A stretch of DNA of 64,000 bases from Squalus acanthias (Eukaryota). Below the pieces are notes generated by a model that made no database searches, was not told where the DNA came from, and was given only the letters and a program-made list of their open reading frames with translations. The stretch covers positions 133,426,001-133,490,000 of the forward strand of contig CM059431.1 in assembly GCA_030390025.1 (NCBI GenBank), read 5' to 3'. The position numbers and the translations under genes are program-made. Within the stretch, counting starts at the first letter, position 1. Each line of letters starts with the position of its first letter. This document shows, piece after piece, positions 5,869-60,496 of the stretch.

Positions 5869-7677
5869 TCATTGGGTACTATTAGACGGTCCTGCGGCAC
5901 CTACGGGGCCGGTAGCAACCGCCACCTTTCCATGTGCACTCAATAATTTGCGCATGGCTCCCAACACTACTTCGAGGTCGTCGGGAGGGGTGGGTGCACT
6001 AGCTTCCCTAGCAGGGACAGGCGTCTGGGCTCGGGCTGCGGGAATTTTATCCCTGGAATCCTTCCAAGGGTTCCTGCAGTTCTTGCGCCAGTGCCCTGTC
6101 TTCCCACACCCGTAACAAGCATTACTTGCCTGCGGGGCGCGATTACCCTCCTGATGCCACTCCCTTTGATACGGGGCTGCGGGTCGTACCTCATGTACTT
6201 TTCCCTTAAGGGGACGTGTTCCCATACCCCTTATATTGCGATATCCTAACGTGAGTCGATTCAAGACCGACTCTTCCGTAATGTTGGGGTCATTGGGATC
6301 AAACCATGCTTTTGCCTGCTCTCTGACGGCTGGTAAACTGTTGGCTACTATGCACCTAAGCCAATGATTTAAACCGGCGCCGTCCATATCGTCGCGCTCT
6401 AGCGCACCTAGACAGCTGCGCTGATATACTGGCCACAGCCTGTCGGCAAAAACCTTCGGGGGTTCTCCCTCCATCTGCACTGTCTGTCCCACTCTAGCAA
6501 ACGGACCTTCATCGTCCGCCCCCAACACTTCCAGGACCTCATTCTTTAATGCCTCATAAGTCTTGGTTCCCCTCTTGCTCTCGCCCGAGAGACACTGAAG
6601 GATTGAACTGCCTAACGAAAACAACAGCATTTTTGCTGTTTCCCCATCATCGCAGCCGTTAATGGCTGCGGTTTGCTCAACTTCTCTGAAATGTACGGAA
6701 GGGTCGTCTAACTCGGTCAGCTTCCGTACATGATTTATCATAACTCTCAGCTGGTGTGAGCTGTGAGGCAACACAAGCTGGCCGAGGAGATCCCCTGGTT
6801 CCTCCCCACCGTTTCTGTTTGGGCCCCTTTTTATACCCGTTACTGGATACAACGGTCCCTTTTCCACTTCTTTCTCAATGGGCTCTTTCGTTTCTTCCAC
6901 TACTTCCTCCCTTACCCAGGTTTCCGAATAGCTGGGTGGCGCGGAGGGCGCAGTGGCTAATACTTCCTCTGCTTTACTTGGTGGGGACTTCTGAAACTCC
7001 TCTTTTACTAGCGGCTGGTGTGCTGACGGACTGATAAGGCACACCATGCCGTGCGCTTTGTTCACGGCCTTTTTGAGGTGCTCTATCTCTTTTTGGCAGG
7101 CGCTATGATCGGCTCCCTGAAACTTATCCTCAAGGGCCAACTTATATGCCGCCCTAACCCCCGTTAAGCTCTCTTCCTGAGTTCTTATCTGGGCAGCTTG
7201 GCGGGCACATCGTTCCTTTAATCTGCCCTCATTTAACTTTGCCTCAGTGACCTGGCACTCGAGGTAATCTATCCTTGTTTTATGGTGACTGGAGATTTCC
7301 TGGCGTTCTTGGTGCAGCGCACTTAAATTCCTAATGAGCAATTCCCCTCCAGAGACCTTCTCATCCATTTCTCCCTCTAAATGACTGATTCGAGCTGTTA
7401 GCGCTGTAATGACCTGGTTTGAAATCTGGACCTGCCTTTTGTAACACATTAGCCAGACTGCTTTCTCGAGTGTCTTTTTATGTTCTTTACTATCTGTCCA
7501 CCTTTCGGCTGCCTCTAGTGGACTTTTATCCGCTAACAATTCACTTATCCATTTCTTAGTTAGATTAACCTTTCCGAACACATAATCTGCTATCTTTTCC
7601 TGCATAACATTTCGTACAGTCACACCAAAGTCTAACACACTACCCTCTCGCTGCCAGTGTCCTGCCGCGGTCGCCAT
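5869..7677 (-). CDS. gag: Gag polyprotein, 602 aa
   Basis: ATG in good context (gaaaATGG); N-terminal coiled-coil-like region; PSAP/PPSY late-domain-like motifs; single CCHC knuckle CYGCGKTGHWRKNC; directly upstream of pol. Confidence 0.93.
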   Translation of the reverse strand: MATAAGHWQREGSVLDFGVTVRNVMQEKIADYVFGKVNLTKKWISELLADKSPLEAAERWTDSKEHKKTLEKAVWLMCYKRQVQISNQVITALTARISHLEGEMDEKVSGGELLIRNLSALHQERQEISSHHKTRIDYLECQVTEAKLNEGRLKERCARQAAQIRTQEESLTGVRAAYKLALEDKFQGADHSACQKEIEHLKKAVNKAHGMVCLISPSAHQPLVKEEFQKSPPSKAEEVLATAPSAPPSYSETWVREEVVEETKEPIEKEVEKGPLYPVTGIKRGPNRNGGEEPGDLLGQLVLPHSSHQLRVMINHVRKLTELDDPSVHFREVEQTAAINGCDDGETAKMLLFSLGSSILQCLSGESKRGTKTYEALKNEVLEVLGADDEGPFARVGQTVQMEGEPPKVFADRLWPVYQRSCLGALERDDMDGAGLNHWLRCIVANSLPAVREQAKAWFDPNDPNITEESVLNRLTLGYRNIRGMGTRPLKGKVHEVRPAAPYQREWHQEGNRAPQASNACYGCGKTGHWRKNCRNPWKDSRDKIPAARAQTPVPAREASAPTPPDDLEVVLGAMRKLLSAHGKVAVATGPVGAAGPSNSTQ

Positions 7678-7772
7678 TTTCTGTAAGGGTTTGCGTGCGT
7701 GTCTCTCAGCCTGTGAGATTCGCGTGGCTCTGTGCAGCCTGTATGTCAGTGCGGGTTTAGGCCTTGTTGCCT

Positions 7773-7811
7773 GTTCTGGTCTCCAGCCAGTCTGGGAACA
7801 CTAGACACACC
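7773..7811 (-). promoter_or_regulatory. Putative primer-binding region (imperfect, tRNA-Leu(CAA)-like)
   Basis: After the LTR end (...CACTCACA) the sense strand reads GGTGTgtctAGTG versus the Leu PBS TGGTGTCAGAAGTG. Plus-strand GTTCTGGTCTCC (7773-7784) matches the anticodon-stem/variable arm of vertebrate tRNA-Leu(CAA) as recalled from memory. Confidence 0.5.
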
Positions 7812-15175: not shown

Positions 15176-15645
15176 GGGGGAAAAATTGGGTATCGCCCAT
15201 TTTGGGGCGCTGATATCGGCCTGGCGCTAATTATCGCCGCCGACCGCGAAATTCATCTCCAGCGCCCCTGAAGGTGATTAGAGCATTAATCAAGCGCTAC
15301 ACATCTCTCTTAGGGTGTTAACATTGGGGATCGAGGCTGAAGCTCAGGTGATGTCAATTACCTGGTACTCAGACAGACTGGCACCATCCAGTTCTTAAAA
15401 GGAAGGGTCCATCTTGTTGCACAGCCACACCCTGCTCATTGCAGCGTTTGACATCGGCCTGCAAGCAGTTAAACATCTTCATCCAAGATTTATGATGGAT
15501 ACTCAGAGGCCCAGGGAGAGAGCTCGGCAGTTTAGTGACCAGGCATTGGTGGCTCTGGTTGGCGCTGTGGAACGGCGATGGGCAGTGCTGTTTCCAGAGA
15601 CTGGCCTGAGACCATTGCCCCAGGAGTTTACAAGGGTCTGGAGGG
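15176..15645 (+). mobile_element. Harbinger left arm with start of Myb-like gene, split by a CR1 insertion (continues at 25151)
   Basis: TIR GGGGGAAAAATT; RERARQFSDQALVALVGAVERRWAVLFP...VWRE resumes as AQHISSRSLVQRTHTQCRKKFNDL at 25151. Confidence 0.85.
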
Positions 15646-17662
15646 AGCCCAGGAGAGCGAGAGTTCGGAGCTACTAAAACAGCGGGAGCCCAGGTGAGCG
15701 AGAGTTCGGAGCAACTAAAACAGCAGGAGTTCAGGAGAGCGAGAGTTCGGAGCTACTAAAACAGCGGGAGTTCAGGAGAGCGAGAGTTCGGAGCTACTAA
15801 AACAGCGGGAGCCCAGGTGAGCGAGAGTTCGGAGTGACTAAAACAGCGGGAGCCCAGGAGAGCGAGAGTTCGGAGCGACTAAAACAGCGGGAGCCCAGGA
15901 GAGCGAGAGTTCGGAGTGACTAAAACAGCGGGAGCCCGGGAGAGAGCGAGAGTTCGGAGCAACTAAAACAGCGGGAGTTCAGGAGAGCGAGAGTTCGGAG
16001 CAACTAAAACAGCGGGAGTTCAGGAGAGCGAGAGTTCGGAGCAACTAAAACAGCGGGAGCCCAGGTGAGCGAGAGTTCGGAGCGACTAAAACAGCGGGAG
16101 CCCAGGTGAGCGAGAGTTCGGAGCGACTAAAACAGCGGGAGCCCAGGAGAGCGAGAGTTCGGAGCAACTAAAACAGCGGGAGCCCAGGAGAGCGAGAGTT
16201 CGGAGCTACTAAAACAGCGGGAGTTCAGGAGAGCGAGAGTTCGGAACAACTAAAACAGCGGGAGTTCAGGAGAGCGAGAGTTCGGAGCAACTAAAACAGC
16301 GGGAGTTCAGGAGAGCGAGAGTTCGGAGCAACTAAAACAGCGGGAGTTCAGGAGAGCGAGAGTTCGGAGCAACTAAAACAGCGGGAGTTCAGGAGAGCGA
16401 GAGTTCGGAGCAACTAAAACAGCGGGAGTTCAGGAGAGCGAGAGTTCGGAGTGACTAAAACAGCGGGAGTTCAGGAGAGCGAGAGTTCGGAGCAACTAAA
16501 ACAGCGGGAGTTCAGGAGAGCGAGAGTTCGGAGTGACTAAAACAGCGGGAGTTCAGGAGAGCGAGAGTTCGGAGCTACTAAAACAGCGGGAGTTCAGGAG
16601 AGCGAGAGTTCGGAGTGACTAAAACAGCGGGAGTTCAGGAGAGCGAGAGTTCGGAGCTACTAAAACAGCGGGAGCCCAGGAGAGCGAGAGTTCGGAGCAA
16701 CTAAAACAGCGGGAGCCCAGGAGAGCGAGAGTTCGGAGCAACTAAAACAGCGGGAGCCCAGGTGAGCGAGAGTTCGGAGTGACTAAAACAGCGGGAGCCC
16801 AGGTGAGCGAGAGTTCGGAGCGACTAAAACAGCGGGAGCCCAGGAGAGCGAGAGTTCGGAGCAACTAAAACAGCGGGAGCCCAGGAGAGCGAGAGTTCGG
16901 AGCTACTAAAACAGCGGGAGTTCAGGAGAGCGAGAGTTCGGAACAACTAAAACAGCGGGAGCCCAGGAGAGAGCGAGAGTTCGGAGCTACTAAAACAGCG
17001 GGAGCCCAGGAGAGAGCGAGAGTTCGGAGCTACTAAAACAGCGGGAGCCCAGGAGAGCGAGAGTTCGGAGCTACTAAAACAGCGGGAGCCCAGGAGAGAG
17101 CGAGAGTTCGGAGCTACTAAAACAGCAGGGAGCCCAGGAGAGCGAGAGTTCGGAGCAACTAAAACAGCGGGAGCCCAGGTGAGCGAGAGTTCGGAGCTAC
17201 TAAAACAGCGGGAGCCCAGGAGAGCGAGAGTTCGGAGCTACTAAAACAGTGGGAGCCCAGGTGAGCGCGAGTTCGGAGCTACTAAAACAGCGGGAGCCCG
17301 GGAGAGAGCGAGAGTTCGGAGCAACTAAAACAGCGGGAGTTCAGGAGAGAGTGAGAGTTCGGAGCAACTAAAACAGCGGGAGTTCAGGAGAGAGCGAGAG
17401 TTCGGAGCAACTAAAACAGCGGGAGCCCAGGTGAGCGAGAGTTCGGAGCAACTAAAACAGCGGGAGCCCAGGAGAGAGCGAGAGTTCGGAGCAACTAAAA
17501 CAGCGGGAGTTCAGGTGAGCGAGAGTTCGGAGCTACTAAAACAGCGGGAGCCCAGGAGAGAGCGAGAGTTCGGAGCTACTAAAACAGCGGGAGTTCAGGA
17601 GAGCGAGAGTTCGGAGCAACTAAAACAGCGGAGTTCAGGAGAGCGAGAGTTCAGGAGAGCGG
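15643..17662 (+). repeat. 41-bp tandem array (~49 copies) forming the CR1-A 5' end
   Basis: Unit GAGCGAGAGTTCGGAGCTACTAAAACAGCGGGAGCCCAGGA with recurring variants; no unique spacers. Confidence 0.95.
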
Positions 17663-17861: not shown

Positions 17862-19712
17862 ATGGGAGACCAGGCAATGTGTTGTTGTTGTTGCATGTGG
17901 GAGCTGGTGGACACCATTGAGGTCCAAGGCGACCACATCTGCAGCAAATGTTGGCTGCTCGAGGGACTTCGGCTCAGAGTTGATGAGCTGGAGTCCGAGA
18001 TTCAGACACTGCGACACATTAGGGAGGGGAACGTTACCTGGACACTAAGGGGGAAAAATTCAGTTGGTTGCGCCTCCCGTTAGCGCCTTAAGAGAGCGCT
18101 AATGGGGCGCAAAGCATCTAGCGCCCAGGCGCGGCGAAGTTTGTGCCGCTCGCGAAATTAACTAGACATTTTGTGGCGGTGCTAAACACTACTGCCACGA
18201 TCTCCTGCGCCGGCAGATCGTGACGTCAGTCGAGTGCGCAACGCCCCGGTATCGCCCCGGAGCGGATATTGAGTGGCGCCCCCTGCCATACCGCCTGACG
18301 CAAGCAACGACAGGTTGAGGGGAGTGTTCTGCAGTCATGAAGGGAAAGGGGGAGCGCTATTTAAAGGTGACCGCTTCCTGCCTTTTATTGTTGGTGCCAT
18401 TTTTGAACTGTGTATTCTGAGAGAGAGAGGGAGAGACTTCTGGAGAGATTCAATGCTGTGTGAAGGAGTTTTGGGTACTGAGCAGCACTTTGCACGTTCA
18501 TTTTGATTTGCCATTCCTTGTATCGATTTAGAAGAGACTGTGGGGGCTGCACTCTGAGCTCTTTGCCTGGTACTCTCCATTGTTCTTTCCAGCAGATTTG
18601 ATGTGCAGGTCTCTCCAGGCTGAGATTCAAGGCTGCAATGAGCAGGATGTGGATGGAAAGCAAGATTAACCATCCCCTTTAAGAACTGGCCCATGCCATT
18701 GTGTGTGTGTTCCATTGCTGACTGACATTACATGAGCTTCGCCTGCGCTCTGAGGTAGCGCCTCGCTCCTCGGCCTTTGCGCCTTAAGACAGGTGTGAAG
18801 CGCCTGATTTAGCGCTCCAATCACCTCCAGGGGCGATAAAAGTCAAGTTTGCAGTCGGTGGCGATAATTAGCGCCAGACGCTAATCTTTGCGCCCGGCCG
18901 ATAATTGCGCCCCAAATGGGGTGAGACTGAATTTCTCCCCCTAAGTTCCAGGAGGCAGTCACACCCACTAGAGTAATTACTTCCAATTTGGCCCATGGTC
19001 AGGGACAGGAGGGTGTGACTACAAGCGAGGCAGGTATTGGGATCCAGGAGGTAGTGATGGAGGAGCCTCAGCCCTTGGCCTTGTCCAACAGGTACGAGAT
19101 TCTTGCTCCCTGTGTGGACGAGGGCAGGGGCTGCAGGAAGGATGAGCAATCTGACCACAGCACCGTGGTACAGGGAGCCATTCAAGTGGGGGGAGTAAAA
19201 AGAAATGTTGTAGTGATGGGGGATAGTATAGTTAGGGGGATAGACACTGTCTCTGCAGCCGAGAGCGTGAGTCCCGAAGGCTGTGTTGCCTGCCCGGTGC
19301 CAGGGTTAAGGACATCTCCTCTGGGCTGGAGAGAAACTTGGAATGGGAGGGGGAGGATCCAGTTGTCATGGTCCACGTAGGCACCAATGACATAGGTAGG
19401 ACAAAGAAAGAGGTTCTGCTGAAAGAGTATGAGCAGCTAGGGGCTAAATTAAAAAGCAGAACCACAAAGGTAATAATCTCTGGATTACTACCTGAGCCAC
19501 GGGCGAATTTGCATAGGGTAAATAAGATCAGAGAAATGAACGAGTGGCTCAAAGACTGGTGTGGGAGAAATGGGTTTCGATTTGTGGGGCACTGGCACCA
19601 GTACTGGGATAAGAGGGAGCTGTTCTGTTTGGACGGGCTTCACTTGAACCATGCTGGGGCTAGAGTCCTGGCAAATCGAATAACTAGGGCTGTAGAGAGG
19701 GCTTTAAACTAA
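17862..19712 (+). pseudogene. CR1-A ORF1 (Cys/His zinc motif, leucine zipper, GDSL/SGNH esterase), split by a MITE
   Basis: CCMWE...HICSKC; GDSIVRG, VHVGTNDIG, DGLHLN motifs; frameshift near 19250. Confidence 0.88.
18049..18941 (-). mobile_element. Non-autonomous Harbinger (MITE family 1), 893 bp
   Basis: TIRs GGGGGAAAAATTCAG / CTGAATTTCTCCCCC; TSD TAA; near-identical inverted copy at 30381-31275. Confidence 0.93.
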
Positions 19713-25591: not shown

Positions 25592-26207
25592 AGCGTCGGC
25601 GGGAGTTTCAGCGGCGGCAGTGGGCCTATAAAAGGCTCCAGAGACCAGGTAAGGCCTCAGAGTGTCGGCGGGTCTTTCAGCGGCGGCAGTGGGCCTGTAA
25701 AAGGCTCCAGAGACCAGGTAAGGCCTCAGAGCGTCGGCGGGAGTTTCAGCGGCGGCAGTGGGCCTGTAAAAGGCTCCAGAGACCAGGTAAGGCCTCAGAG
25801 TGTCGGCGGGAGTTTCAGCGGCGGCAGTGGGCCTGTAAAAGGCTCCAGAGACCAGGTAAGGCCTCAGAGCGTCGGCGGGAGTTTCAGCGGCGGCAGTGGG
25901 CCTGTAAAAGGCTCCAGAGACCAGGTAAGGCCTCAGAGCGTCGGCGGGAGTTTCAGCAGCGGCAGTGGGCCTGTAAAAGGCTCCAGAGACCAGGTAAGGC
26001 CTCAGAGCGTCGGCGGGAGTTTCAGCGACGGCAGTGGGCCTATAAAAGGCTCCAGAGACCAGGTAAGGCCTCAGAGCGTCGGCGGGAGTTTCAGCGGCGG
26101 CAGTGGGCCTGTAAAAGGCTCCAGAGACCAGGTAAGGCCTCAGAGCGTCGGCGGGAGTTTCAGCGGCGGCAGTGGGCCTGTAAAAGGCTCCAGAGACCAG
26201 GTAAGGC
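25592..26207 (+). repeat. 69-bp tandem array (9 copies) at the CR1-C 5' end
   Basis: Unit AGCGTCGGCGGGAGTTTCAGCGGCGGCAGTGGGCCTRTAAAAGGCTCCAGAGACCAGGTAAGGCCTCAG. Confidence 0.95.
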
Positions 26208-26431
26208 GAACCAGTCTCCGAACTCAGAGGGAAAAATAATCGAAGTGTGACGTCACCAAAAAGCAGGTAAGTGATTGGTTGGTGAGAATTTCTCTCTAAG
26301 CTTAAATTCTGTGGTGTTAAATTTCTAGGGTCTCTGTGGTGTAGTGGGGACAGTTGGTAAATAAAGCGTCCTAGAGTATATCTGTAACTGGGGTATTGAA
26401 TACATTTTTAATTTAATTAAAGGAGTAGGTC

Positions 26432-27382
26432 ATGACAGGTGATATCAGCCCCGTGTTATGCTCCTCTTGCTCCATGTGGGAATTCAGGGACGCTGCCAGT
26501 GTCCCTGGGGACCACGTGTGCGAGAAATGCATCCAGCTGCAGCTACTTGTAGACCGCATTGCGGCACTCGAGCTGCGGGTGGATGAGTTTTGGAGCATAC
26601 GCGATGCTGAGAGGGTCGTGGATAGCACGTTTAATGAGTTGGTCACGCCGCAGGGTAGGGCTGCACAGGCAGAAGGGAAATGGGTGACCATCAGGCGGAG
26701 CAGCAGAGGCAGGCAGGGAGTACAGGGGACCCCTGCGGTCATCCCCATTTCAAACAGGTATACCGATTTGGATACTGTTGAGGGGGATGACTCACCAGGG
26801 GAGAGTGGCAGCAGCCAACTTCCTGGCACCAGGGTTGCTTCTGCTGCTCAGAAAGGGAGGAAAAAGAGTGGGAGAGCAATAGTGGTAGGGGATTCTATCG
26901 TAAGGGGAACAGATAGGCGTTTCTGTGGCCGCAAAAGTGACTCCAGGATGGTTTGTTTCCTCCCTGGGGCCAGGGTCATGGATGTCACTGAGCGGCTACA
27001 GGGCATTCTTAAGGGGGAGGGTGAGCAGGCAGAGGTCGTGGTTCACATTGGGACCAACGACATAGGTAGGAAGGGGGATGAGGTCCTGCATCAAGAATTT
27101 AGGGAGCTAGGCAGCAGATTAAAGAGCAGGACCTCAAAGGTTGTAATCTCTGGATTACTCCCAGTGCCACGTGCTAGTGAGTATAGGAATAGGAGGATAG
27201 AACAGATGAATGCGTGGCTAAAGAGTTGGTGCAGGAGGGAGGGTTTTAGTTTCCTGGATCACTGGGCCTGCTTCTGGGGAAGGTGGGACTTGTACAAGTC
27301 GGACGGTTTGCACCTGAACCAGAGCGGGACAAATATCCTTGCGGGGAGGTTTGCTAGCACTGTTGGGGGGGGTTTAAACTAA
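26432..27382 (+). CDS. CR1 ORF1 protein (zinc motif, leucine zipper, GDSL/SGNH esterase)
   Basis: CSSCSMWE...HVCEKC; heptad leucines; VVGDSIVRG, PGA, HIGTNDIG, DGLHLN. Confidence 0.93.
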   Translation: MTGDISPVLCSSCSMWEFRDAASVPGDHVCEKCIQLQLLVDRIAALELRVDEFWSIRDAERVVDSTFNELVTPQGRAAQAEGKWVTIRRSSRGRQGVQGTPAVIPISNRYTDLDTVEGDDSPGESGSSQLPGTRVASAAQKGRKKSGRAIVVGDSIVRGTDRRFCGRKSDSRMVCFLPGARVMDVTERLQGILKGEGEQAEVVVHIGTNDIGRKGDEVLHQEFRELGSRLKSRTSKVVISGLLPVPRASEYRNRRIEQMNAWLKSWCRREGFSFLDHWACFWGRWDLYKSDGLHLNQSGTNILAGRFASTVGGGLN

Positions 27383-30300
27383 CTTGGCAGGGGGATGGGA
27401 TACAGAGTGGAGCTACAATAGGGGGTGATATACAGTCAAATATAGAGAAAAAAACAAGTCAGCTTGGAAGACAGGGCAAACATGTAAGAGCAAGGCTGGA
27501 AGGCATCTATTTTAATGCAAGGAGTCTAGCGAATAAGGTGGATGAACTGAAGGTGTTGATAAACACATGGGAGTATGATATTGTTGCTATCACGGAGACA
27601 TGGTTGAGGGAGGGGCAAGACTGGCAGCTCAATATTCCGGGGTACAGAATCTTCAGGCGAGACAGAGGGGGAGGTATAAGAGGAGGGGGTGTCGCAATAT
27701 TAATTAAGGAATCAATTACTGCCATAAGGAGGGATGATATATTAGCAGGTTCCTCCAATGAGGCTATATGGGTGGAGCTTAAAAACAAAAAGGGGGCAAG
27801 CACTTTGCTTGGAGCGTACTATAGGCCCCCAAACAGTCAGGGGGAGATAGAGGAACAGATATGTAGGCAAATCTCAGAGAAATGTGCAAATAATAGGGTA
27901 ATAATAATGGGGGATTTCAACTTCCCCAATATTAACTGGGATAGTCAGAGTGTAAAAGGCTTAGAGGGTTCAAAATTCTTAAAGTGCATCCAGGAGAGCT
28001 TTTTGAGCCAGCATGTAGAAAGTCCTACAAGAGAGGGGGCGGTACTGGACCTAATTCTCAGGAATGTGGCCGGCCAAGTGGAAGAAGTGCTAGTAGGTGA
28101 ACACTTTGGTGACAGTGACCATAATACGGTGAGATTTAAGGTGGTCATGGAAAAGGACAGGGATGGGCCGGAAATAAAGGTTCTAAATTGGGGGAAGGCC
28201 GATTTTAATAGGATAAGGCAGGATCTGGCCAAAAGGGACTGGGATCAGCTGCTTGTAGGAAAATCCGCATCGGAGCAATGGGATTCTTTCAGAAGGGAGA
28301 TTGAGATCATACAATGGCAGCATGTTCCCGTAAAGGTCAAGGGTGGTTCCAGAAACCACAGGGAACCTTGGATGTCAGGGGATATACGAGAATGGATCAG
28401 GAAAAAAAGGAGGGCTTTTGGCAGATACAAAATGCTAAAGACGGAGGAAGCCCTAGAGGAGTACAAAAAGTGCAGGGGGATACTTAAAAAAGAAATTAGG
28501 AGATCAAGGAGGGGCCATGAAATAACACTGGCGAGCAAAATAAAGGAAAATCCTAAGATGTTTTATAAGTATATTAAGGGTAAGAGGATAACTAGGGAAA
28601 AGATAGGGCCCATTAGGGACAAAAGTGGCAATCTGTGTGTGGAGCCGGAAGATGTAGGTGGGGTTCTAAATGAATTTTTTGCATTTGTTTTCACTATGGA
28701 GAAGGACGATGCAGACATAAAATTAGGGCAGGGGGACTGTGATATACTCGAACATTTTAACATCGAGAGGGAGGAGGTATTGGCGGTTTTAGCAGGTCTG
28801 AAAATGGATAAATCCCCAGGTCCGGACGAAATGTATCCCAGGCTGCTGTGTGAGGCAAAGGAGGAGATTGCGGGGGCTCCAACACATATATTCAGAACCT
28901 CTCTGGCCACAGGGGATGTGCCAGAGGACTGGAGAACCGCTAATGTAGTACCATTATTCAAGAAAGGGAGTAGGGAAAAACTGGGGAACTACAGGCCAGT
29001 GAGCCTAACATCAGTGGTAGGAAAATTATTGGAAAAAATTCTGAGGGACAAAATTAGTCTCCACTTGGAGAGGCAAGGATTAATCAGGGTTAGCCAACAT
29101 GGCTTTGTCAAGGGAAAATCATGTCTGACTAATTTGATTGAATTTTTTGAGGGGGTGACTAGGTGTGTGGATGAGGGTAACGCAGTGGTTGTGGTATACA
29201 TGGATTTCAGTAAGGCCTTCGATAAAGTCCCGCACAGGAGACTGGTCAAGAAGATAAGAGCCCATGGAATCCAGGGTGCCTTGGCACATTGGATACAAAA
29301 CTGGCTCAGTGGCAGAAGGCAGAGGGTGATGGTCGAAGGTTGTTTTTGTGACTGGAAGCCTGTGGCCAGTGGGGTACCACAGGGATCGGTGCTGGGTCCC
29401 TTGCTGTTTGTGGTCTACATTAACGACTTGGATATGAATGTAAAAGGTATGATCAGTAAGTTCGCGGATGATACAAAAATTGATAGGGTGGTAAATAGCG
29501 AGGAGGGTAGCCTCAGTCTGCAGGACGATATAGATGGGTTGGTCAGATGGGCGGAACAGTGGCAAATGGAATTTAATCCGGAAAAGTGCGAGGTGATGCA
29601 CTTTGGAGGGACTAACAAGGCAAGGGAATACACAATGAATGGTAAGACCCTAGGCAAGACGGAGGGTCAGAGGGATCTTGGTGTGCAAGTACACAGATCC
29701 CTGAAGGCGGCGGAACAGGTGGATAAGGTGGTAAAAAAGGCATATGGGATACTTGCATTCATTAGCCGAGGCATAGAATATAAGAGCAAGGAGGTTATGA
29801 TGGAGCTGTATAAAACACTGGTTAGGCCACATCTGGAATACTGTGTGCAGTTCTGGTCGCCACACTACAGGAAGGATGTGATCGCTTTGGAGAGGGTGCA
29901 GAGGAGATTCACCAGAATGTTACCCGGGCTGGAGTGCTTCAGCTATGAAGAGAGACTGGGCAGATTGGGTTTGTTTTCCTTGGAGCAGAGGAGGCTGAGG
30001 GGTGACATGATTGAGGTGTACAAAATTATGAGGGGCATAGATAGGATGGATACTAAGGAGCTTTTTCCCTTAGTAGAGGGGTCTATAACAAGGGGGCATA
30101 GATTCAAGGTAAAGGGCGGGAGGTTTAGAAGGGATTTGAGAAAGAACTTTTTCACCCAGAGGGTGGTTGGAGTCTGGAACTCACTGCCTGAAAGGGTTGT
30201 GCAGGCAGGAACCCTCACAACATTCAAGAAGCATTTGGATGAGCACTTGAAATGCCATAGCATACAAGGCTACGGACCAAATGCTGGAATATGGGATTAG
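27373..30300 (+). CDS. CR1 ORF2 (APE endonuclease + reverse transcriptase)
   Basis: Frame open from the ORF1 stop region through YFNARS, ITETWL, MGDFN, SDH, QGSVLGP, FADD. The ORF track start (27538, GTG) lies inside the APE domain. Confidence 0.94.
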   Translation, partial: FKLTWQGDGIQSGATIGGDIQSNIEKKTSQLGRQGKHVRARLEGIYFNARSLANKVDELKVLINTWEYDIVAITETWLREGQDWQLNIPGYRIFRRDRGGGIRGGGVAILIKESITAIRRDDILAGSSNEAIWVELKNKKGASTLLGAYYRPPNSQGEIEEQICRQISEKCANNRVIIMGDFNFPNINWDSQSVKGLEGSKFLKCIQESFLSQHVESPTREGAVLDLILRNVAGQVEEVLVGEHFGDSDHNTVRFKVVMEKDRDGPEIKVLNWGKADFNRIRQDLAKRDWDQLLVGKSASEQWDSFRREIEIIQWQHVPVKVKGGSRNHREPWMSGDIREWIRKKRRAFGRYKMLKTEEALEEYKKCRGILKKEIRRSRRGHEITLASKIKENPKMFYKYIKGKRITREKIGPIRDKSGNLCVEPEDVGGVLNEFFAFVFTMEKDDADIKLGQGDCDILEHFNIEREEVLAVLAGLKMDKSPGPDEMYPRLLCEAKEEIAGAPTHIFRTSLATGDVPEDWRTANVVPLFKKGSREKLGNYRPVSLTSVVGKLLEKILRDKISLHLERQGLIRVSQHGFVKGKSCLTNLIEFFEGVTRCVDEGNAVVVVYMDFSKAFDKVPHRRLVKKIRAHGIQGALAHWIQNWLSGRRQRVMVEGCFCDWKPVASGVPQGSVLGPLLFVVYINDLDMNVKGMISKFADDTKIDRVVNSEEGSLSLQDDIDGLVRWAEQWQMEFNPEKCEVMHFGGTNKAREYTMNGKTLGKTEGQRDLGVQVHRSLKAAEQVDKVVKKAYGILAFISRGIEYKSKEVMMELYKTLVRPHLEYCVQFWSPHYRKDVIALERVQRRFTRMLPGLECFSYEERLGRLGLFSLEQRRLRGDMIEVYKIMRGIDRMDTKELFPLVEGSITRGHRFKVKGGRFRRDLRKNFFTQRVVGVWNSLPERVVQAGTLTTFKKHLDEHLKCHSIQGYGPNAGIWD

Positions 30301-30380
30301 ATTAGACAGGGCTTGATGGCCGGCGCGGACACGATGGGCTGAAGGGCCTCTATCCGTGCTGTATAACTCTATGACTCTAT

Positions 30381-31275
30381 GGGGGAGAAATTCAGTATCG
30401 CCCCATTTGGGGCGCAATTATCGGCCGGGCGCAAAGATTAGCGCCTGGCGCTAATTATCGCCATCGACTGCAAACTTGACTTTTATCGCCCCTGGAGGTG
30501 ATTGGAGCACTAAATCAGGCCCTTCACACCGGTCTTAAGGCGCAAAGGCCGAGGAGCGAGGCGCTACCTCAGAGCGCTGGCGAAGCTCATGTAATGTCAG
30601 TCAGCAATGGAGCACACACACAATGGCACGGGCCAGTTCTTAAAGGGAATGGTTAATCTTGCTTTCCATCCACATCCTGCTCATTGCAGCCTTGAATCTC
30701 TGCCTGGAGAGACCTGCACATCAAATCTGCTGGAAAGAACAATGGAGAGTACCAGGCAAAGAGCTCAGAGTGCAGCCCCCACATTCTTTTCTAAATCGAT
30801 ACAAGGAATGGCAAATCAAAATGAACCTGCAAAGTGCTGCTCAGTACCCAAAACTCCTTCACACAACGTTGAATCTCTCCAGAAGTCTCTCTCACTCTCT
30901 CTCTCAGAATGCGTAGTTCAAAAATGGCACCAACAATAAAAGGCAGGAAGCGGTCACCTTTAAATAGCGCTCCCCCTTTCCCTTCCTGACTGCAGAACGC
31001 TCCCCTCAACCTGTCGTTGCTAGCGTCAGGCGGTAAGGCAGGGGGCGGCACTCAATATCCGCTCTGGGGCGATACCAGGGCGTTGCGCACTCGACTGACG
31101 TCACGATCTGCCGGCGCAGGAGATCGTGGCGGTAGTGTTTAGCGCCGCCGCAAAATGTCTAGTTAAGTTCGCGAGCGGCGCAAACATCGCTGCGCCCAGG
31201 CGCTAGTTGCTTTGCGCCCCATTAGCGCCCTCTTAAGGCGCTAACGGGAGGCGCAACCAACTGAATTTTTCCCCC
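30381..31275 (+). mobile_element. Non-autonomous Harbinger (MITE family 1) inserted in CR1 tail
   Basis: TIRs GGGGGAGAAATTCAG / CTGAATTTTTCCCCC; TSD TAT; ends homologous to 57936-62169. Confidence 0.94.
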
Positions 31276-31292
31276 TATGACTCTATGACTAT

Positions 31293-31660
31293 GCCCCCAA
31301 GTTCTAGACTCTCCAGCCAGGAGAAACAACCTCTCAGCATCTACCCTGTGAATCCCCCTCAGAATGTTTCAATGAGATCGCCTCTCATTCTTCTAAACTC
31401 CAGGCAGTATAGACCCAATCTACTCAATCTCTCCTATCATCCCAGGAATCAGTCTGGTGAACCTTCGTTGCACCGCCTCTAAGGTAAGTATATCCTTCCT
31501 TAGGTACGGAGACCAAAACTGTACACAGTACTCCAGGTGTGGTTTCACCAAAGCCCAGTACAATTGCAGCAAGATTTCCTCACTCTTGGACTCCAACCCC
31601 CTTGCAATAAAGACCAACATACCATTTGCCTTCCTAATTGCTTGCTGCACCTGCATGTTA
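31293..31660 (-). mobile_element. CR1 RT fragment
   Basis: ORF 31420-31656 MQVQQAIRKANGML...LEYCVQFWSP. Confidence 0.85.
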
Positions 31661-32590
31661 ACTTGCAGGCCACGAAATTCGTCACCTTAGCGCCGGTTGA
31701 TAAGGTCAGTTTCAGCAAAAAAATTGCGGCTGCCTCGCTTCCGCCCAATTACGGAGCGGGCTGCGGCTGCCGCTATTTTGGGCAGCTCGTTCGCCAGAAG
31801 ATTGCTAATGAGGCAGATGGTGATGTGGATCGTGCAGCGCTGATTTGACGCACGACCTGCTATTTTGGATGTCGCTGCTTGATTGCATGCCCTCTCCAAA
31901 GCACACACAGCTGAACGTATGTTCAGCTGCATGAGGGACCACCCCCCAACGGTATTTAAAGGCATCACCAACAACTTGCAGGTGACTTACTTATTAATTT
32001 CTACTGGCTCTGTGTAAGTCTGTGCAACGATTTGGAGCTTTCTACAGTTATTTAAAGTTGTTGAGGTGACAGGGAGTGGTGCTGCAAGTGGAGAAGGCTT
32101 TGCTTCTGAATTCAAGGGTTCTGCTCAGACCATTTGCTCCCAGTCATGGGGGCGCTACTTACAGTCCCCCTCGCACTGGTGCATGAAAGGGAGATGGAGC
32201 AGAGGCAGCAAAAAAGAGGACAAGTTGCTAACAGGGATGAGGAGGAGGGGCAGGAGGGCTCTCAGCAGGAGGCCTTACCCACCTAGGGTCTTCCGAGAGC
32301 ACTTCTCCTACCTGTACTTAAGCCAGGAGCAGTGTGTTCAGAGGCTCCGCTTCACCAAGCAGGTGGTCACAGAACTCTGCCACCTCCTGGAACCAGACCT
32401 GCAGCCTCAGAGCAGGGTGCAACGGCGTAGCCAATGGCAGTCAAGGTCACTGTGTCCCTCAATTTTTTCACCACCAGATCCTTCCAGTCTGCAACAGGTG
32501 ACAAAGCTAACATCTCCCAGTTCGCTGTCCATTGCTGCATCTGAGAGGTCACAGAGGCTCTGTACTCCAAGAGAAGGGACTTAATTGTCT
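31661..32590 (+). pseudogene. Harbinger fragment with transposase N-terminus
   Basis: RRPYPPRVFREHFSYL...RLRFTKQVVTELCHLL in ORF 32066-32584. Confidence 0.8.
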
Positions 32591-32704
32591 GCCCTTATTT
32601 CCCCTTATAATTTCTTCTGTCTCAGCCTCTAAGGGACCCACATTTACTTTCGCTACTCTCTTCCTTTTTACATACTTGTAGAAGCTCTTACAATCTGTTT
32701 TTAT

Positions 32705-34444
32705 GGGCTGCATTTTCCCAGTGGAGGCGGGTTCACAGCGGGAGAGCTAGTTGGCGGGTTCCAGTCCCACTCCCGGCTCCAGCTGCTCTCTGTAAACAAT
32801 TTTGCGCTGATTGGGCTTGTTAAGCCCGCCGTGCACGTTACCCGGCCCAATTACAGGGTGCAGGTCTGTTGAGGTCCTCTGATGATGCGTTTGTTGCTGG
32901 ACTACTTAAGGGGGCCATGTCCCCATTTGCTCTCCATTCTGATTTGATACTCCTGAGTGCTGCTTCTTTGAGAAATGACTGCAGAGAGACCATTTTGAGC
33001 AACCCTATTGTTTGCTCTATGACACTTCTGGTGGAAATGTGGCTTTGATTGTAACGCTCCTCAGATTTGTTTGATGGCCTCCTCAATGGTGTCATTAGCC
33101 ATGTCTTCAGGGGATAGCCCTTGTCTCCAAGGAGCCAGCCGGAAAGTTCATTTGGCGGAGTGAAGAGCTGAGGGACAGTGGAGCGGCGCAGGCTGTAAGA
33201 GTCATGGCAGCTGCCAGGGAACTTGGCGCACACATGCATGATGCTCTTCCTATGGTTGCAGACCAGCTGCACGTTAAGGGAGTGGAAGCCCTTGCGGTTG
33301 ACTGCTGGGTTGTGATGGGGTGCCCTGATGGCCACATGTGTGCAGTCGATGACGCCCTGCACCCATGGGAAGCCAGCCAGATTGACAAAGCCGAACACCA
33401 GCTCCGTAACACTGGCTTCATCAGTGGAAAAGCGGATGTAATTGGTGGACTTGTCAAAGAGGCCATCGGTAACCTGCCTGATGCATCTGTGGGCGGCCGA
33501 CTGGGAGATGCCGCTAATGTCTGCTGCAGATCCCTGGAAGGACCCCGACGCAAAGAAGTTGAGTGCAGTGGTGACTTTGACAGCCAGTGGTAACTGGTGT
33601 CCACCTGCTCCTTTGGGCTGCAGGTCTTGATCGAGCATTGTGCAAAAGTCTGCGACTACCTCTCGCAAAAGTCTCAGCCTCCTTTGGCACTGCTGCTCAG
33701 CCATGTGGAAGCTCACCCTCTGCCTGTAAACCCTGTGTTGGGGGTATCTCCTGCAGCATGGTGCAGCCCTGCACTGATGGCCTCTTCCCTACGCAGCATC
33801 AGGTGGTTGAGGAGAAGGTTGCTGCTCTTGTTGTTGGTGCTGCTGGTGTGCCTGGTTCTGCTGCTGTTGCGGCTGATCCTCTTCAGATTCTGAGGACCAG
33901 GGTGAGAGAGTATAAATGGTTCCCATTCTGCTGTTATATATGGCAGTTGAGGATGAGATGTTAGAAGCCGCCAGTCAATGGGGAGAAAGGTTATTTCAAG
34001 GTGGTGACAGTGCATATAGAGTTTACACCACACACTTACAACCTCAATACAGATCAAATGTGTCTTCCAAATCCTGAAATCAGCAACTTCTGACATTTGA
34101 AAGTGAACAGATGTGAGAGGTTAGCTTTTATACTGCAGTTGCAGCTGTGAACTATTCAGCTCGCTGGAACGGCTGACATATTTACCTGATGTGATCTCCG
34201 AATGACGTGAAACCCGTTGAAAATGTGGGAAAATAGAAAAAGGCTGGCAAAATAGTAGTTAACAAGCAGTTAACTATCTTCAATGCCTCCCATGCTGCTT
34301 GGTGTCGAGTCTGTTCTGAAAAGCGCAGACCCGACACTTTGGGAACTTACATGGAGGCGGGTTCGCAGCGGGTTCCCAACCCGCCATCAATCATTTCAAA
34401 TTTAACAGCTGACCCACCTCCGAACCCACCCTCTGAGCGCGGCC
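32705..34444 (-). mobile_element. Harbinger deletion derivative with truncated transposase (32838-33716)
   Basis: [33 protein letters not shown]; left TIR GGGCTGCATTTT, right TIR eroded. Confidence 0.82.
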
Positions 34445-35659
34445 TATATTTCTTGCTAGTTTACTCTCATTCTATTTTCTCCCTCTTCATAAATTTTTTG
34501 CTCATCCTTTGCTGGTTTCTAAAACTCTCCCAATTCTCAGGCTTACTACTTTTCTTGGCAACGTTATAAGCCATGGATGGATCACTTTTACTGCAAAGTT
34601 TTTATTTCTCAATGGAATGCATATTCATTGAGGATTATGATATATTTCTTTAAATGTTCACCATTGCTTATCCACCATCATACCTTTTAATCTAATTTCC
34701 CAATCTACCTTAGCCAACTCACCTCTCATACCTAGGTAATTGGCTTTATTTAAGTTTAATATCTAGTTTCAGACTTAAGTACATCCCTCTCGTACTCAAT
34801 GTAAAATTCTATCATATTATGATTACTCTTCCCTGGAGGATCCCTTGCTATGAGATTACTAATTAACCCTGTCTCTTTACGCAAGACAAGATCAAAAATA
34901 AACTCTTCCATGGTTGGTTCTATGGCGTATTGTTCTAGGAAACTGTCTCGAATGCATTCCATGAACTCGTCCTCTGACTACTTTTGCCAATTTGATCTGT
35001 CCCGTCTCTATGAAGATTAACGTCCCCCAAGATTATTGCATTACCTTTGTTACAAGCTCCTCTTATTTCTTGATTAATACTCTGTTCAACAGTATAGCTA
35101 CTGGGGGCCTATAAGCTACACCTAACAGTATTTTCTGCCCCTTGTTATTACTTATCTGCACCCATACTGATTCTACTTACTGCTCTTCCGAGCCAAGATC
35201 TTTCCTCACTACTGTCCTTATGTCATCCTTTATTATCAGGGCTACCCCCGCCTCCCCCCCACCCCGAACTCTTCTATTTTGTTTGTCTTTCCGAAACATC
35301 AAGTACCCTGGAATATTTTGTTCCCAACCTTGGTCACCATGCAACCATGTCTCTTAAGAGCTAGTAGATCAAACCCATTTATCTCTATTTGTGCCCTTAA
35401 TTCATTTATCTTGTTACGAATGATTTGTGCATTCAGTTACAGCACTTATGATTTTAACTTTTTTATCATTTTCCCAGATTTCACCTTATTCACTGATGCA
35501 CTTTTACCATTAAATTCTCCGGGGGAAAAATTCAGTACCTTAGTGCCTCCCATTAGCACCAGCAGATGGCGCTAATGGGGCACTAGAGCATTATTGCTCG
35601 GGCAAGGTGAATCCAATGCTGCACACCAAATCCACCTCCCCCACCCCCGCAGCGCCGCC

Positions 35660-37208
35660 GATGCATTTTGGCAGAAGGAACAGGGAGAGGCAATATACAC
35701 TTAATGGCACAGTTTTAAAGAGTGTGCAGGGACAGAGGGACCAAAGAGTTAATGTGCATAGGTCCCTGAAGGTGGCAAGAGATATTGAGAGAGTGGTTAG
35801 CAAAGCATATGGGATCTTGGGCTTCATAAATAGAAGTATTGAGTACAAAAGTAGAGAAGTTATGCTGAACCTTTATAAAGCGCTGGTTAGGCCACAACTG
35901 GAGTATTGCGTCCAGTTCTGATCACCACACTTTAGGAAGGATGTGAAGGCCCTTGAGAGGGTGCAGAGGAGATTTACCAAAATGGTTCCGGGGATGGGGG
36001 ATCTTAGCTACAAGGACAGGTTGGAGAAGCTGGATTTGTTTTCATTAGAGCAAAGGAGGTTGATTTGATAGAAGTGTACAAGATTATGACGGGTTTGGAT
36101 AGGCTAGACGGGGAAAGGCTGTTCCCACTAGTTGATGGTACAAGGACAAGGGGACACAGATTTAAGGTTTTGGGCAAGAGATACAGGGGGGGGGTGAGGG
36201 AAAACTTTTTTACACAGCAAGTGGTGAGGACCTGGAATTCGCTGCTGACGGACGCGGTGGAGGCGGAGACACTCAATGTTCTCAAGGGGAGACTGGATAG
36301 GCACTTGAGGGAAATAAACTTGCAGGGCTACGGGGATAGAGCGGGTGAATGGGACTGACTGGATTGCTCTACAGAGAGCTGGCACAGACTTGATGGGCCA
36401 AATGGCTTCCTTCTGTGCTGTTATGACTCTATGACTATATGAGCTAAAAATTGAGTAGCTCCCCCGTTGGGGTACTAATGTCGTTGGGGCACTAATTTTA
36501 GCGCCCCGGAAAAATTAGCACCCCCGTGACGGAAATTGAGTAGTAGCACCCCAAGAGGGAAGCGGGGCGCTACTGGAAGCGCCCCACCTCCCCCTTGGAG
36601 CTCTGCAAGGGAATATCGCGGTGCGACATGCCACAGCGCCGTGCCTCAGTATTGCAGGCCTTCTTAAAGGGGAGGGACCTTCCGCAGCATGACCTGGGGC
36701 CCAGCTGGGCCCCCGGGGATCGGGAGTGCCGGCAAAAGAGCCCGGCACTCAAAAGAAGTGCCGGGCTCATGGAGCGCAGCCGGCACTCCGCGGTGGGGGG
36801 TGGGGGGCGGGTAAGGAGGCCGGGGACGGGAGTGGACGCAGGTGCTGGCAGGCGGCCAGCAACAAAAATGGCGGACCCACACCTCGCCTTTAAATAGCGC
36901 CTCCCCGGCCGCAGGTCGACCCCCCTGACCCCGTCGGACATAGCGTCCGGCGGTAAGTCAGGGGGCGCTCCTGAAGATCGTGGCCGGGGCGCGGGCGGGG
37001 TGCTGTGTACGGCGATGATGTCATCGCCGGCGGCGTAGCGCCACAGGGGTGCTACCGGTTACCGCCGCTGCTAACCTCCCGCTGAATTTCGCGGGAGGCG
37101 TTGGCGGTGCCTGCGCCCGGGCGCTAGTTGCTTTGCACCCCGTTAGCGCCCTAAGAGGGCACCAACGGGATACTCAAAGCAACCAAATTTTTCCCCCTAT
37201 GACTCTAA
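35660..37208 (+). mobile_element. 5'-truncated CR1 with MITE in its tail
   Basis: MHFGRRN...LEYCVQF; RGHRFK; (ACTCTATG)-type tail on both sides of 36441-37197. Confidence 0.85.
36441..37197 (+). mobile_element. Non-autonomous Harbinger (MITE family 2), GC/CpG-rich
   Basis: Ends GAGCTAAAAATT / AAATTTTTCCCCC; TSD TAT; inverted homolog at 40473-41246. Confidence 0.88.
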
Positions 37209-37572
37209 CAGTTATCGCCGGGAGCCTCAACACCAGGTGGATTGTGACATCAGTGAGTGTGCAATGCTCACTCACTGCCCGATCTGCGAAATTGATTGTC
37301 ACCAGCTACCTTAGTGCCTGGAGGAAACAACAACAGGGAGAGGTGGTGTGAAGCAACAGGAAGCTAGCTCCAGGGACATAATTTAAAGGGCTCATCAGTA
37401 ATGACTCGCAGCTGTAGGTTAGTGAATTTTCAGTGCTTTCTTGTCAGTTTCACATAGTGCAACAATCTCATTCTGTAATTTCAATGTTATTTAGTATCAG
37501 GAGTGTTGTGGCAACTAAAAAGTAACTACATTTATTCTTAAAAAAATCAAACTGCTACACTTGGTTACATTA

Positions 37573-38770
37573 ATGGGCGCTGTACTTTCAGTCAACCTCG
37601 CCCTCCAGGATCTATAGCGGAGGGAGCAGAAGCAGCGAGAAACACTGGAACATGTGCCCAGAGGGAGGAGGAGGGCCATCAGGGCTCTCAACAGGAGGCC
37701 TTACCCTCCGAGGGTATGCGAAGAGCACTTCTCCTACCTCCAGTTAAGCGAGGAGCAGTGTATGAGAAGGCTCTGCTTCACCAAGGAGGTGGTCACAGAA
37801 CTCTGCCACCTCCTGCAACCAGACTTGCAGTCTCAGATCAGGGTGACCACGGCTCTCTTAATGGTAGTCAAGGACACCGTCGCCCTCAATTTCTTCGCCA
37901 GTGGATCCTTCCAGTCTGCAACAGAAGACATAGCTAACATCTCGCAGTTCACTGTCCATCGCTGCATCCGGGAAGTCACAGAGGCTCTCTACAGTAGGAG
38001 AAGGGATTACATTTCCTTCCCCATCACCAGAGTGAAGCAGGACAAACATGCATGTGGCTTTGCCAGGATAGCGGGATTCCCCATGGTGCAGGGCACCATT
38101 GACTGAACCCACGTGGCTTTGCGGGCACCGCATAACAATCCTGAGATCTTCCGTAACCTCAAAGGCTACCACTCACTCAATGTGCAGTTGGTGTGCAACC
38201 ACAGACAGATAATCTTCAATGTCAATGCTCGCTATCCTGACAGCAGCCACAATGCCTTTATCCTGTGCCAGCACTCTTCCAGCCACCACGTCAAGCTCGC
38301 GGCTGGCTGGTTGTAGACAAGGGCTATCTGCTCTCCACCTGGCTCATGACTCCCCTCCGCAACCCCACCACTCCTGCCTAGCACTCATATAATGAGAGCC
38401 CTGCTGCCACCAGGAACATCATCGAGCAGACCATCAGCTTGCTGAAGCAATGGTTCTGCTGCCTTGACCGCTCGAGAGGAGCCCTCCAGTACTCAGCTGA
38501 GCGGGTGTCCCATTTCGTGGTGGTCTGCTGCATGCTCCACAACTTGGCCAACATGAAGGCTCAGCCCATGCCAGCAGGGATTGCGGGATCACTTCAGTAG
38601 GAGGAAGAGGGAGAGGAGGAGGAGGAGGAGGAGGACGAGGAGGAAGAGGAAGATGAGGAGGACGACGAGGAGGACGAGGAGGAGGAAGAACAGGAGGGAG
38701 GAGGCAGCCACTTAATCGGCCTTCCGGAAGAGCGGTCCATGACCGCCTGATCAGACTATGGTTCCAATGA
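37573..38770 (+). pseudogene. Harbinger transposase, multiple stops and frameshifts
   Basis: Collinear with 60497-61657: [35 protein letters not shown], acidic tail. Confidence 0.88.
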
Positions 38771-40472: not shown

Positions 40473-41246
40473 GGGGGAAAAATTCAGCTGCTTGCGCCTC
40501 CCGTTAGCGCCTTAAGAGGGCGCTAATGGGGCGTAAAGCAGCTAACGCCCGGGCGCAGCGCCGCCCACGCCTCCCGAAAAATTCAGCGGGAGGTTAGCGG
40601 CGGCGCCAGCCGGTAGCGCCCTGTGGCGCTGCGCCGCCGGCGATGACGTCATCACCGTGCGCAGCACCCCGCTCGCGCTCCAGCCGCGATCTTCAGTCGT
40701 GCCCCCTGATTTACCGCCAGACGCTATGTCCGACGGGTTCAGGGAGGCGTACGTGCGGCCGGGGCGGCGATATTTAAAGGGGAGGTGGCAGGCGGCCATT
40801 TTTGTTGCTGGCCGCCTGCCAGCACCTGCCCCCGTTGCTGTCCCCGGCCCCCGTGAAGCCCCCCCACCGTGAAGTGCCGGCTGCGCTCCAAGAGCCCGGC
40901 ACTTCTCTTGAGTGCCGGGCTCTTTTGCCGGCACTCCCGATCCCTGGGGGCCCAGCTGGGCCCCGGTTCGCGCTGCGCAGGGTCCCTCCCCTTTAAGAAG
41001 GGGAGGAAGGCCTGCAATACCGCGGTGCGACGTGCCGCAGCGCGTGGCGCTGCGGCACGTAGCGCCAGGATATTCCCTCGCAGCGCCCCAAGAGGGATGC
41101 GGGGTGCTTCCAGTGGCGCCCCGCTTCCCTCTTGGGGCGCAACCACTGAAGTTCCGGCGCGGGGCCGCTAATTTTTTCGGGGCGCTAAAAGTAGCGCCCC
41201 GGCGAGGTTAGCGCCCCAAATGGGGCGCGACTCAATTTTTAGCCCC
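40473..41246 (-). mobile_element. Non-autonomous Harbinger (MITE family 2)
   Basis: Ends GGGGGAAAAATTCAG / CAATTTTTAGCCCC; flanks TAG/AAG; homologous to 36441-37197. Confidence 0.87.
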
Positions 41247-57935: not shown

Positions 57936-58292
57936 GGGGTAGAAATTAGGTCGCGCCCCATTTGGGGCGCAAATATCGTCCGCGCGCAAATATTAGCGCC
58001 TGGCGCTAATTATCGGCACTGACAGGAAACTTCACTTTTACCGCCCCGGGAGGTGAGTGGAGCGCTAAATTAGGCGCTGCACACCTCTCTTAAGGCGCAA
58101 AGGCCTAGGAGTGAGGCGCTAACTCAGCGCACGAGCGCAGCGCAGCTGCTGCCAGTTAGCGCGGTAACACAGACACACTGGCGCCGGACACTTCTTAAAG
58201 CGGGGGGGGCCACTTGCTCCCCAGCCACACCCTGCTCATTGCAGCCTTGAATCTCAGCCTGGAGAGACCTGTAATCCATTTTGCTGCCAAGA

Positions 58293-60202: not shown

Positions 60203-60496
60203 GATGTGTGCCAAAATGCTGGTCATTTTTTTATTAAAGGCCGAGGTTCATGGCCCAACTTTTGTTTAGTGTTTTGGACATTATCTCCAGGTTGTGAGAA
60301 CCAGTTATGTTATTGACTGTTTTTTGGTGTTTATTTCTATGAGTTTGTCATGAGGAATTGACACACACAGAGTTTGTACAATAAATAAGTTTATGTATTC
60401 AAAATATACATGGCTGGTGGTTGGAATTATTGGTGCCTTGGCCGGCTTAGGGGTTGCGTGCTGGGTTGATTCGTGTTTGTAGCACTGGCAGGGGTC

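Follow-up and report, generated by a model that had tools for sequence, protein, structure and literature searches.

Insertion of Harbinger-type elements into the microsatellite tail of one CR1 lineage in Squalus acanthias

The 3′ microsatellite tail of one CR1 lineage is a real and very large insertion hot spot for Harbinger-type elements throughout the genome of Squalus acanthias: among the first 100 matches listed for one tail type, 13% carry an element at one base, the first TAT of the tail, which is about 8,000 times the mean per base. Very probably, the hot spot is made by an ordinary extended target preference of the transposon, which the tail of this lineage matches by chance. The window analyzed here is the whole stretch of 64,000 nucleotides at positions 133,426,001 to 133,490,000 of contig CM059431.1 (assembly GCA_030390025.1, forward strand), for which a first-pass annotation had described three CR1 tails, each interrupted at a TAT by a Harbinger-type element and resuming afterwards.

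Direct reading of the three junctions confirmed this description. All the host tails are of the (ACTCTATG)n type, TAT is found on both flanks of every insert, and the resumed tail reads GACTCTA after each of them. The first insert, E1 (30381-31275, + strand; 895 bp), is a non-autonomous Harbinger-type MITE whose TIRs match at 15 of 16 bases; the 5′ part of its host tail (30363-30380, + strand) ends in the tail's second TAT (30378-30380), and the other copy of the TAT (31276-31278) opens the resumed tail (31276-31293, + strand). E2 (36441-37197, + strand; 757 bp) is a MITE of a second family, whose decayed left TIR matches the right one at 11 of 16 bases. It lies between TATs at 36438-36440 and 37198-37200, with the tail resuming at 37198, and its host tail (36421-36440, + strand) is that of a CR1 fragment (about 35660-36440) that is older and more distant. 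Both E1 and E2 are non-coding. E3 (57936-62169, + strand; 4,234 bp) is a Harbinger element that has two genes and belongs to a very young family, with TIRs matching at 13 of 16 bases and the duplicated TAT at 57933-57935 and 62170-62172; the tail resumes at 62170. The start of its host tail (57923-57935, + strand) is that of a third CR1 3′ fragment, 87% identical to the young CR1 that hosts E1, and here the first TAT was used. A single duplicated event behind the three inserts is ruled out, as had been claimed, because the inserts differ: E1 and E3 are about 80% identical at their ends, and E1 and E2 are 69% identical over 279 nt. The CR1 tails at 9790, 20414, 25130 and 44760, which had been named as free of inserts, indeed showed no such element end. 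The annotation missed two further elements in the same window, neither in a tail, which serve as internal controls: a second copy of the E1 family (18049-18941, − strand; 95.4% identity; TSD TAA) and a relative of E2 (40473-41246, − strand; 80.5% identity; flanks TAG/AAG).

A 5-bp TSD (CTATG) would fit the three tail junctions taken alone, but it is excluded by the non-tail copies with both ends in view (e.g. TAA, AAA and TTG), which fix the length at 3 bp, the value given in the first-pass annotation; 3-bp duplications are present in most of the elements with both ends in view. That all three (ACTCTATG)n tails in the window are occupied is a lucky draw, since genome-wide occupancy is about 0.19 per tail and the probability of three out of three is 0.007. 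When public contigs were compared with 29800-37600, no interpretable empty-allele joint was found at E1 or E2 among the matches listed, in which repeat copies dominate. The window also contains open gag and pol frames at 1381-7800 (− strand; 643 and 1,495 aa stop to stop), which look like those of an LTR retrotransposon as assigned by eye, and a 41-bp tandem array of 48.7 copies (15643-17657), which starts at the truncation point of a left end of Harbinger type (15176).

The CR1 copy hosting E1 belongs to a very young subfamily, the best 39 other copies being 99-100% identical over 666 nt. Its ORF1 (26429-27382, + strand) is open and encodes a GDSL/SGNH esterase domain (PF13472, E 1.5e-15), and its ORF2 (27358-30300, + strand; 980 aa stop to stop) is likewise open and encodes an endonuclease (PF03372) and a reverse transcriptase (PF00078). 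The element has CR1 anatomy, namely the esterase ORF1, the endonuclease and reverse transcriptase ORF2, and the short tandem-repeat tail; we take its clade to be CR1 on this ORF and tail anatomy. Just upstream of ORF1, a 69-bp array of 8.9 copies (25592-26207) is probably the 5′ UTR of the young CR1. In the folded CR1 3′ UTR, a hairpin just upstream of the tail had no support (z = −0.82). Some young copies are part of segmental duplications that exist in several copies, on contigs of chromosome scale as well as small ones: L232-L235 (contigs C9, C3214, C244 and C29), L209-L211 and L213. For several LINEs, the 3′ UTR and the terminal repeats matter for retroposition (PMC3747384), and an insertion in the tail may accordingly disable the host LINE.

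E3 carries a DDE transposase gene (60497-61657, − strand; 386 aa, open) with the domains DDE_Tnp_4 (PF13359, E 5.2e-38) and Plant_tran (PF04827, E 7.3e-12), and a Myb/SANT-like gene (58293-60202, + strand; about 488 aa; PF13873, E 1.3e-9). For the latter, three exons with GT-AG borders are predicted from the sequence (58293-58529, 58814-58976 and 59136-60202), and the frame is open across the putative join. Among the family members, copy number differs for a 54-bp repeat in intron 1 (58670-58786) and for 87 bp duplicated in frame within the Myb-like gene (59281-59456). At 29 other loci, the E3 family is 99.6-99.75% identical over about 1,620 nt, and it looks recently active. The features of PIF/Harbinger elements are all present: a Harbinger-type DDE transposase, a Myb/SANT-like second gene, short TIRs, a 3-bp TSD, and an insertion preference reaching past the TSD, as seen in a matrix of 107 non-tail half-sites and in four site classes. 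A search of PDB sequences returned a low-complexity match only and no transposase.

Genome-wide counts were obtained by exact-pattern searches of the 3.71-Gb assembly, and occupancies were taken from the first 100 matches listed. The terminal 12-mer shared by the elements, GGGGKARAAATT, occurs 122,438 times, as compared with 3,667 times for the reversed control; assuming two ends each, this corresponds to about 59,400 elements, or 1.6e-5 per base. In total, 3,200 element ends sit 3-40 bases behind the CR1 3′ anchor CTGTGCTGT (control, 1), and by our tally 94 of the first 100 listed lie at the tail TAT or a close variant. The anchor misses tail variants, including the window's own young subfamily, and the anchored totals are therefore lower bounds. 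One (ACTCTATG)n tail type was searched for with a pattern that bars C at the last position, and it occurs 7,887 times. Among the first 100 of these 7,887 matches listed, we counted 12 exact and one near-exact end at the first TAT and six ends at the second TAT, all six confirmed by the anchor search, so that 18-19 of the 100 tails are occupied.

The tails nevertheless hold a minor share of the elements. Set against the total of about 59,400 elements, the anchored insertions (about 3,000) or the downstream junctions (3,651) amount to 5-6%; on contig C1, seven of the first 100 ends listed were left out as unlike the family, and 7 of the remaining 93 unselected ends are tail-like. About 5-8% of the elements are in tails and more than 90% are elsewhere, so there is no homing to tails. 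The subfamilies may differ in this share, as one of the 29 youngest full-length copies but nine of 30 left-end matches sit in tails (Fisher P = 0.012). Both orientations are represented, with a mild bias: by our tallies among the matches listed, left and right ends occur at about 65:34 at upstream junctions (P = 0.002) and 43:56 at downstream ones (P = 0.23), which may be explained by TSD asymmetry between the ends.

Several nested arrangements were observed at these loci. In L057 and L079, two elements are stacked in one tail with one regenerated repeat unit between them, and stacked pairs also occur at G000:C1:27304697-27304747 and C1:40699535-40699585. L236 (G000:C15:25024363-25025333) shows nesting at three levels: the tail of a very young CR1 contains a MITE, and 344 bp into this MITE lies an element of the E3 type, 99% identical and with its right end first. 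In L032 (638-1530), the MITE has CR1 ORF2 on one flank and a tail on the other, and the MITEs of L033 and L038 are without a TSD; the mismatched flanks of these three suggest recombination between copies or transposition-linked deletion.

What the elements recognize can be derived from the insertions outside the tails. These show a palindromic preference, TWRRACAC-TWA-GTGTYYWA, spanning about 19 bp, and they bear out the extended target preference that the first-pass annotation had put forward. Training relied on few half-sites, biased toward two subfamilies: 159 pooled half-sites gave 107 unique ones, and 95 after removal of tail and control look-alikes. The half-site consensus T-W-R-R-A-C-A-C stands beside a triplet rich in TTA/TAA/TAT and carries about 3.2 bits; in the 107 unique half-sites, the frequency of A at −7 is 0.79 and that of C at −4 is 0.65, with A/G at −9 and −8. 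In the 95-site matrix, the optimum target for non-tail insertions is TTAGACAC-TTA-GTGTCTAA at 18.2 bits, the first tail TAT reaches 11.5 bits (bootstrap 9.9-12.7) and the second 9.9 bits. These two are the best scores anywhere in a 4-kb CR1 copy, the window's four unoccupied CR1 tails score 6.1, 5.1, 5.1 and 1.5 bits, and 10 of 148,681 background positions reach 10 bits. The (ACTCTATG)n tail is a good yet sub-optimal match, about 6.7 bits under the optimum, and ACTC-TAT-GACT can no longer be regarded as the preferred site. Other termini, GGGCTGGATTTT, GGCCTAGAAATT, GGCCCAGAAATT and GGGCTAGAAATT, are found at the palindromic motif too and, in one or two cases, in these tails (including L229). 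Because different termini are found at one motif, the preference seems to be common to several Harbinger-like families. Such termini are also present in the window at 41245, 41389, 42177 and 55502.

Occupancy was found to depend on the motif score in sites of other kinds as well, each class being represented by the first 100 matches listed, on one contig. One control, a recurrent non-tail site, is located in another CR1 family where the endonuclease frame starts (7,024 copies; 10.7 bits), and an insertion there interrupts ORF2. It is occupied in 11 of the first 100 of 7,024 matches listed, against 13 of 100 for the first tail TAT (Fisher P = 0.83). Another is a second 8-bp CR1 tail, (GTTCTTAT)n, scoring 5.5 bits, which is occupied in none of the first 100 of 36,947 matches listed (P = 0.00016 against the 13/100 of the (ACTCTATG)n first TAT); a general liking for microsatellites is ruled out by these empty tails. 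The generic best half-site, TWARACACTWA followed by G, has 2,017 copies with mostly unrelated flanks, and by our count the first 100 of these listed contain 22 exact and four near-exact ends, with other termini, which we read as Harbinger-like, in 10 of the 100. The insertions are not those of a generic 3-bp preference lacking enrichment in CR1 tails, as the 3,200 anchored ends and the occupancies of 18-19/100 and 0/100 in the two tail types (matches listed) indicate.

For the first tail TAT, the matrix predicts an occupancy of 5.2% (95% bootstrap 1.7-11.2%) against the 13% observed (exact CI 7-21%). The ratio of observed to predicted occupancy is 2.5 for the first tail TAT, 3.6 for the second, 3.9 for the ORF2 site and 2.0 for the generic site, the prediction for the generic site (11%) coming from the 107-site matrix and the others from the 95-site matrix. 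The matrix is 2- to 4-fold too low in every class tested, and since the ratio for the tail is no higher than those of the controls, the tail shows no excess beyond its sequence; there may be a modest tail-specific boost on top of the motif score. Further recurrent insertion points were noticed within CR1 ORF2 bodies (L025, L031, L055, L103, L104, L119, L149, L168, L190 and others), and among 100 unselected flanks, at least 22 correspond to CR1 copies of the window.

In the reading that we prefer, a PIF/Harbinger transposase complex would read an extended palindrome, approximately TWRRACAC-[TWA-like 3-bp TSD]-GTGTYYWA, and would target well-matching sequences of any kind thousands of times above the average. 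The motif may be read directly by the transposase or the Myb-like protein, as in Harbinger3_DR. The 8-bp repeat tail TATAACTC-TAT-GACTCTA of one CR1 lineage fits both half-sites fairly well, presumably by coincidence and not by evolved matching. The tail is then one of several repeat-borne hot spots, taking about 5-8% of the insertions because CR1 has copied its tail thousands of times. Every insertion would be a separate cut-and-paste event, later than the landing of the CR1 copy, and because the 3-bp duplication regenerates the repeat, a second element can stack beside the first.

Two other readings hold that the agreement between motif and tail is not a coincidence. According to one, which we regard as unlikely, the two lineages are coupled: the preference of the transposon would have drifted or been selected toward a site that an active LINE keeps making, and the tail would be a renewed, low-cost sink. 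Renewal of the tail sites as such is supported, as the youngest CR1 copies are already about 16% occupied. In the young subfamily, eight of the best 39 other copies carry an element in the tail; when seven of the 39 hosts were collapsed as segmental duplicates, in three sets, five of 32 independent hosts were occupied, by different inserts, as compared with 19 of 100 older tails (P = 0.80). Since fresh tails are filled at the rate of older ones, the word "self-renewing" used in the first-pass annotation is borne out in part, as a description of the tails. If the coupling is true, filling about a fifth of the tails could sterilize LINE copies by splitting the 3′ UTR from the terminal repeats, and the LINE could be pushed to change its tail. 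The other reading, a co-adapted safe harbor, is quite improbable; in it, the preference would be tuned to the CR1 tail, or tail insertions would be selectively retained, in a harmless niche renewed by the LINE, comparable to that of Dada in small-RNA genes or of Pokey in rDNA. The tail is the top-scoring site of a CR1 copy, but it falls short of the optimum by the 6.7 bits given above, and more than 90% of the insertions lie outside tails. The ORFs of E1's host stay open and the youngest tails are filled at the older-tail rate, but the site whose use destroys ORF2 is occupied as often, and the observed/predicted ratio of the tail does not exceed those of the controls. The TSD is W-rich (TTA/TAA/TAT), unlike the CWG of zebrafish, but of the six bases of the zebrafish half-site, the optimum AGACAC shares five and the tail halves share four.

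Very improbable is the view that the CR1 machinery has inflated the count by copying a small number of CR1 elements together with the MITEs in their tails. The orientation bias of about 60:40 agrees with it, but the downstream junctions (3,651) are not above the upstream ones (5,310), the patterns being unmatched in length and specificity. Comparison of 30 anchor-selected loci and the three window sites showed different inserts in the hosts that resemble each other most, and among these 33 loci no linked pair was found, with host and insert both more than 97% alike. L226 is a near-identical host with the same junction as E1 in the window, but its insert is only 93.4% identical to E1, and that of L191 is 94.2% identical, despite hosts 99-100% alike; at 93-94% insert identity, co-retrotransposition of either with E1 is rejected. 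L192, L212, L215 and L216 have one common insert, but they also share the far flank and are thus one segmental duplication, by which co-retrotransposition is rejected for them too. CR1 copies that retrotransposed together with the insert, which the first-pass annotation had listed as a check, were looked for as LINE and MITE composites sharing host and insert variants in different flanks, and none was seen in 33 + 39 loci.

The MITEs in hosts that differ by less than 1% are themselves 4-7% apart, mostly through differences outside CpG; the simplest reading of these sequences is that a young E3-type transposase would have recently re-mobilized many older MITE donors. Such diverse donors are required by the finding that very young hosts carry inserts 93-96% alike to the family sample, which could speak for an effect of structure or process, in which the transposase is drawn, independently of base sequence, by bent DNA, open chromatin or a repair intermediate, either at the tandem repeat or where a CR1 copy is just integrating, but this too has very little probability, as the equally tandem 8-bp (GTTCTTAT)n tail, 4-5 times commoner, is empty in 100 matches listed and one exact triplet is used (94 of 100 listed at the tail TAT or a close variant).

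The hot spot, in summary, is real and strong; it is very probably due to the chance match of an ordinary extended preference, a mechanism already known, and this instance of it is apparently unreported: no paper on Harbinger insertion into CR1 tails was found in a literature search that had subscription journals and Repbase entries outside its range. It provides a quantified case in which an interspersed repeat becomes a hot spot across the genome through a known extended preference, with about one fifth of the tails of one CR1 lineage filled, and thousands of natural sites for defining a vertebrate Harbinger target matrix. Repeat annotation is affected by the nested and stacked elements. The weight of the finding would be greater if tail occupancy curbs CR1 mobility or drives tail turnover.

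The anatomy of the PIF/Harbinger family is described in PMC9179366, and all the characterized elements have a preference reaching past the TSD (PMC2836001). The closest likeness, by motif and anatomy, is to zebrafish Harbinger3_DR/Harbinger3N_DR, which has a DDE transposase and a Myb-like gene, short TIRs, a 3-bp TSD and an extended palindromic target, AAACACCWGGTCTTT (PMC3016246 and PMC3432063, citing Sinzelle et al. 2008). Its half-site AAACAC agrees with the AGACAC optimum found here in five of six bases. Against the zebrafish target AAACAC-CWG-GTCTTT, it is the flanks that match (5/6), whereas the commonest central triplets here are TTA/TAA/TAT instead of CWG, the preference is looser, at about 3.2 bits per half-site, and a LINE tail provides the motif thousands of times over. 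Maize PIF and rice mPing/Pong (Tourist MITEs) share the TTA-like 3-bp TSD, the preference past the TSD and MITEs mobilized in trans, but their preference covers 9 bp as compared with about 19 bp here (PMC2836001). Dada, with strict targeting of small-RNA genes, and Pokey, with partial targeting of rDNA, likewise insert repeatedly at one position of a multicopy sequence (PMC3706591). They belong to another superfamily, and their target is a conserved RNA gene and not the tail of a mobile LINE. Dada places most of its copies at one site of one multicopy target; the elements studied here, with about 5-8% of copies and 7 of 93 unselected ends in tails, have no such strict specificity and, like Pokey, also insert elsewhere.
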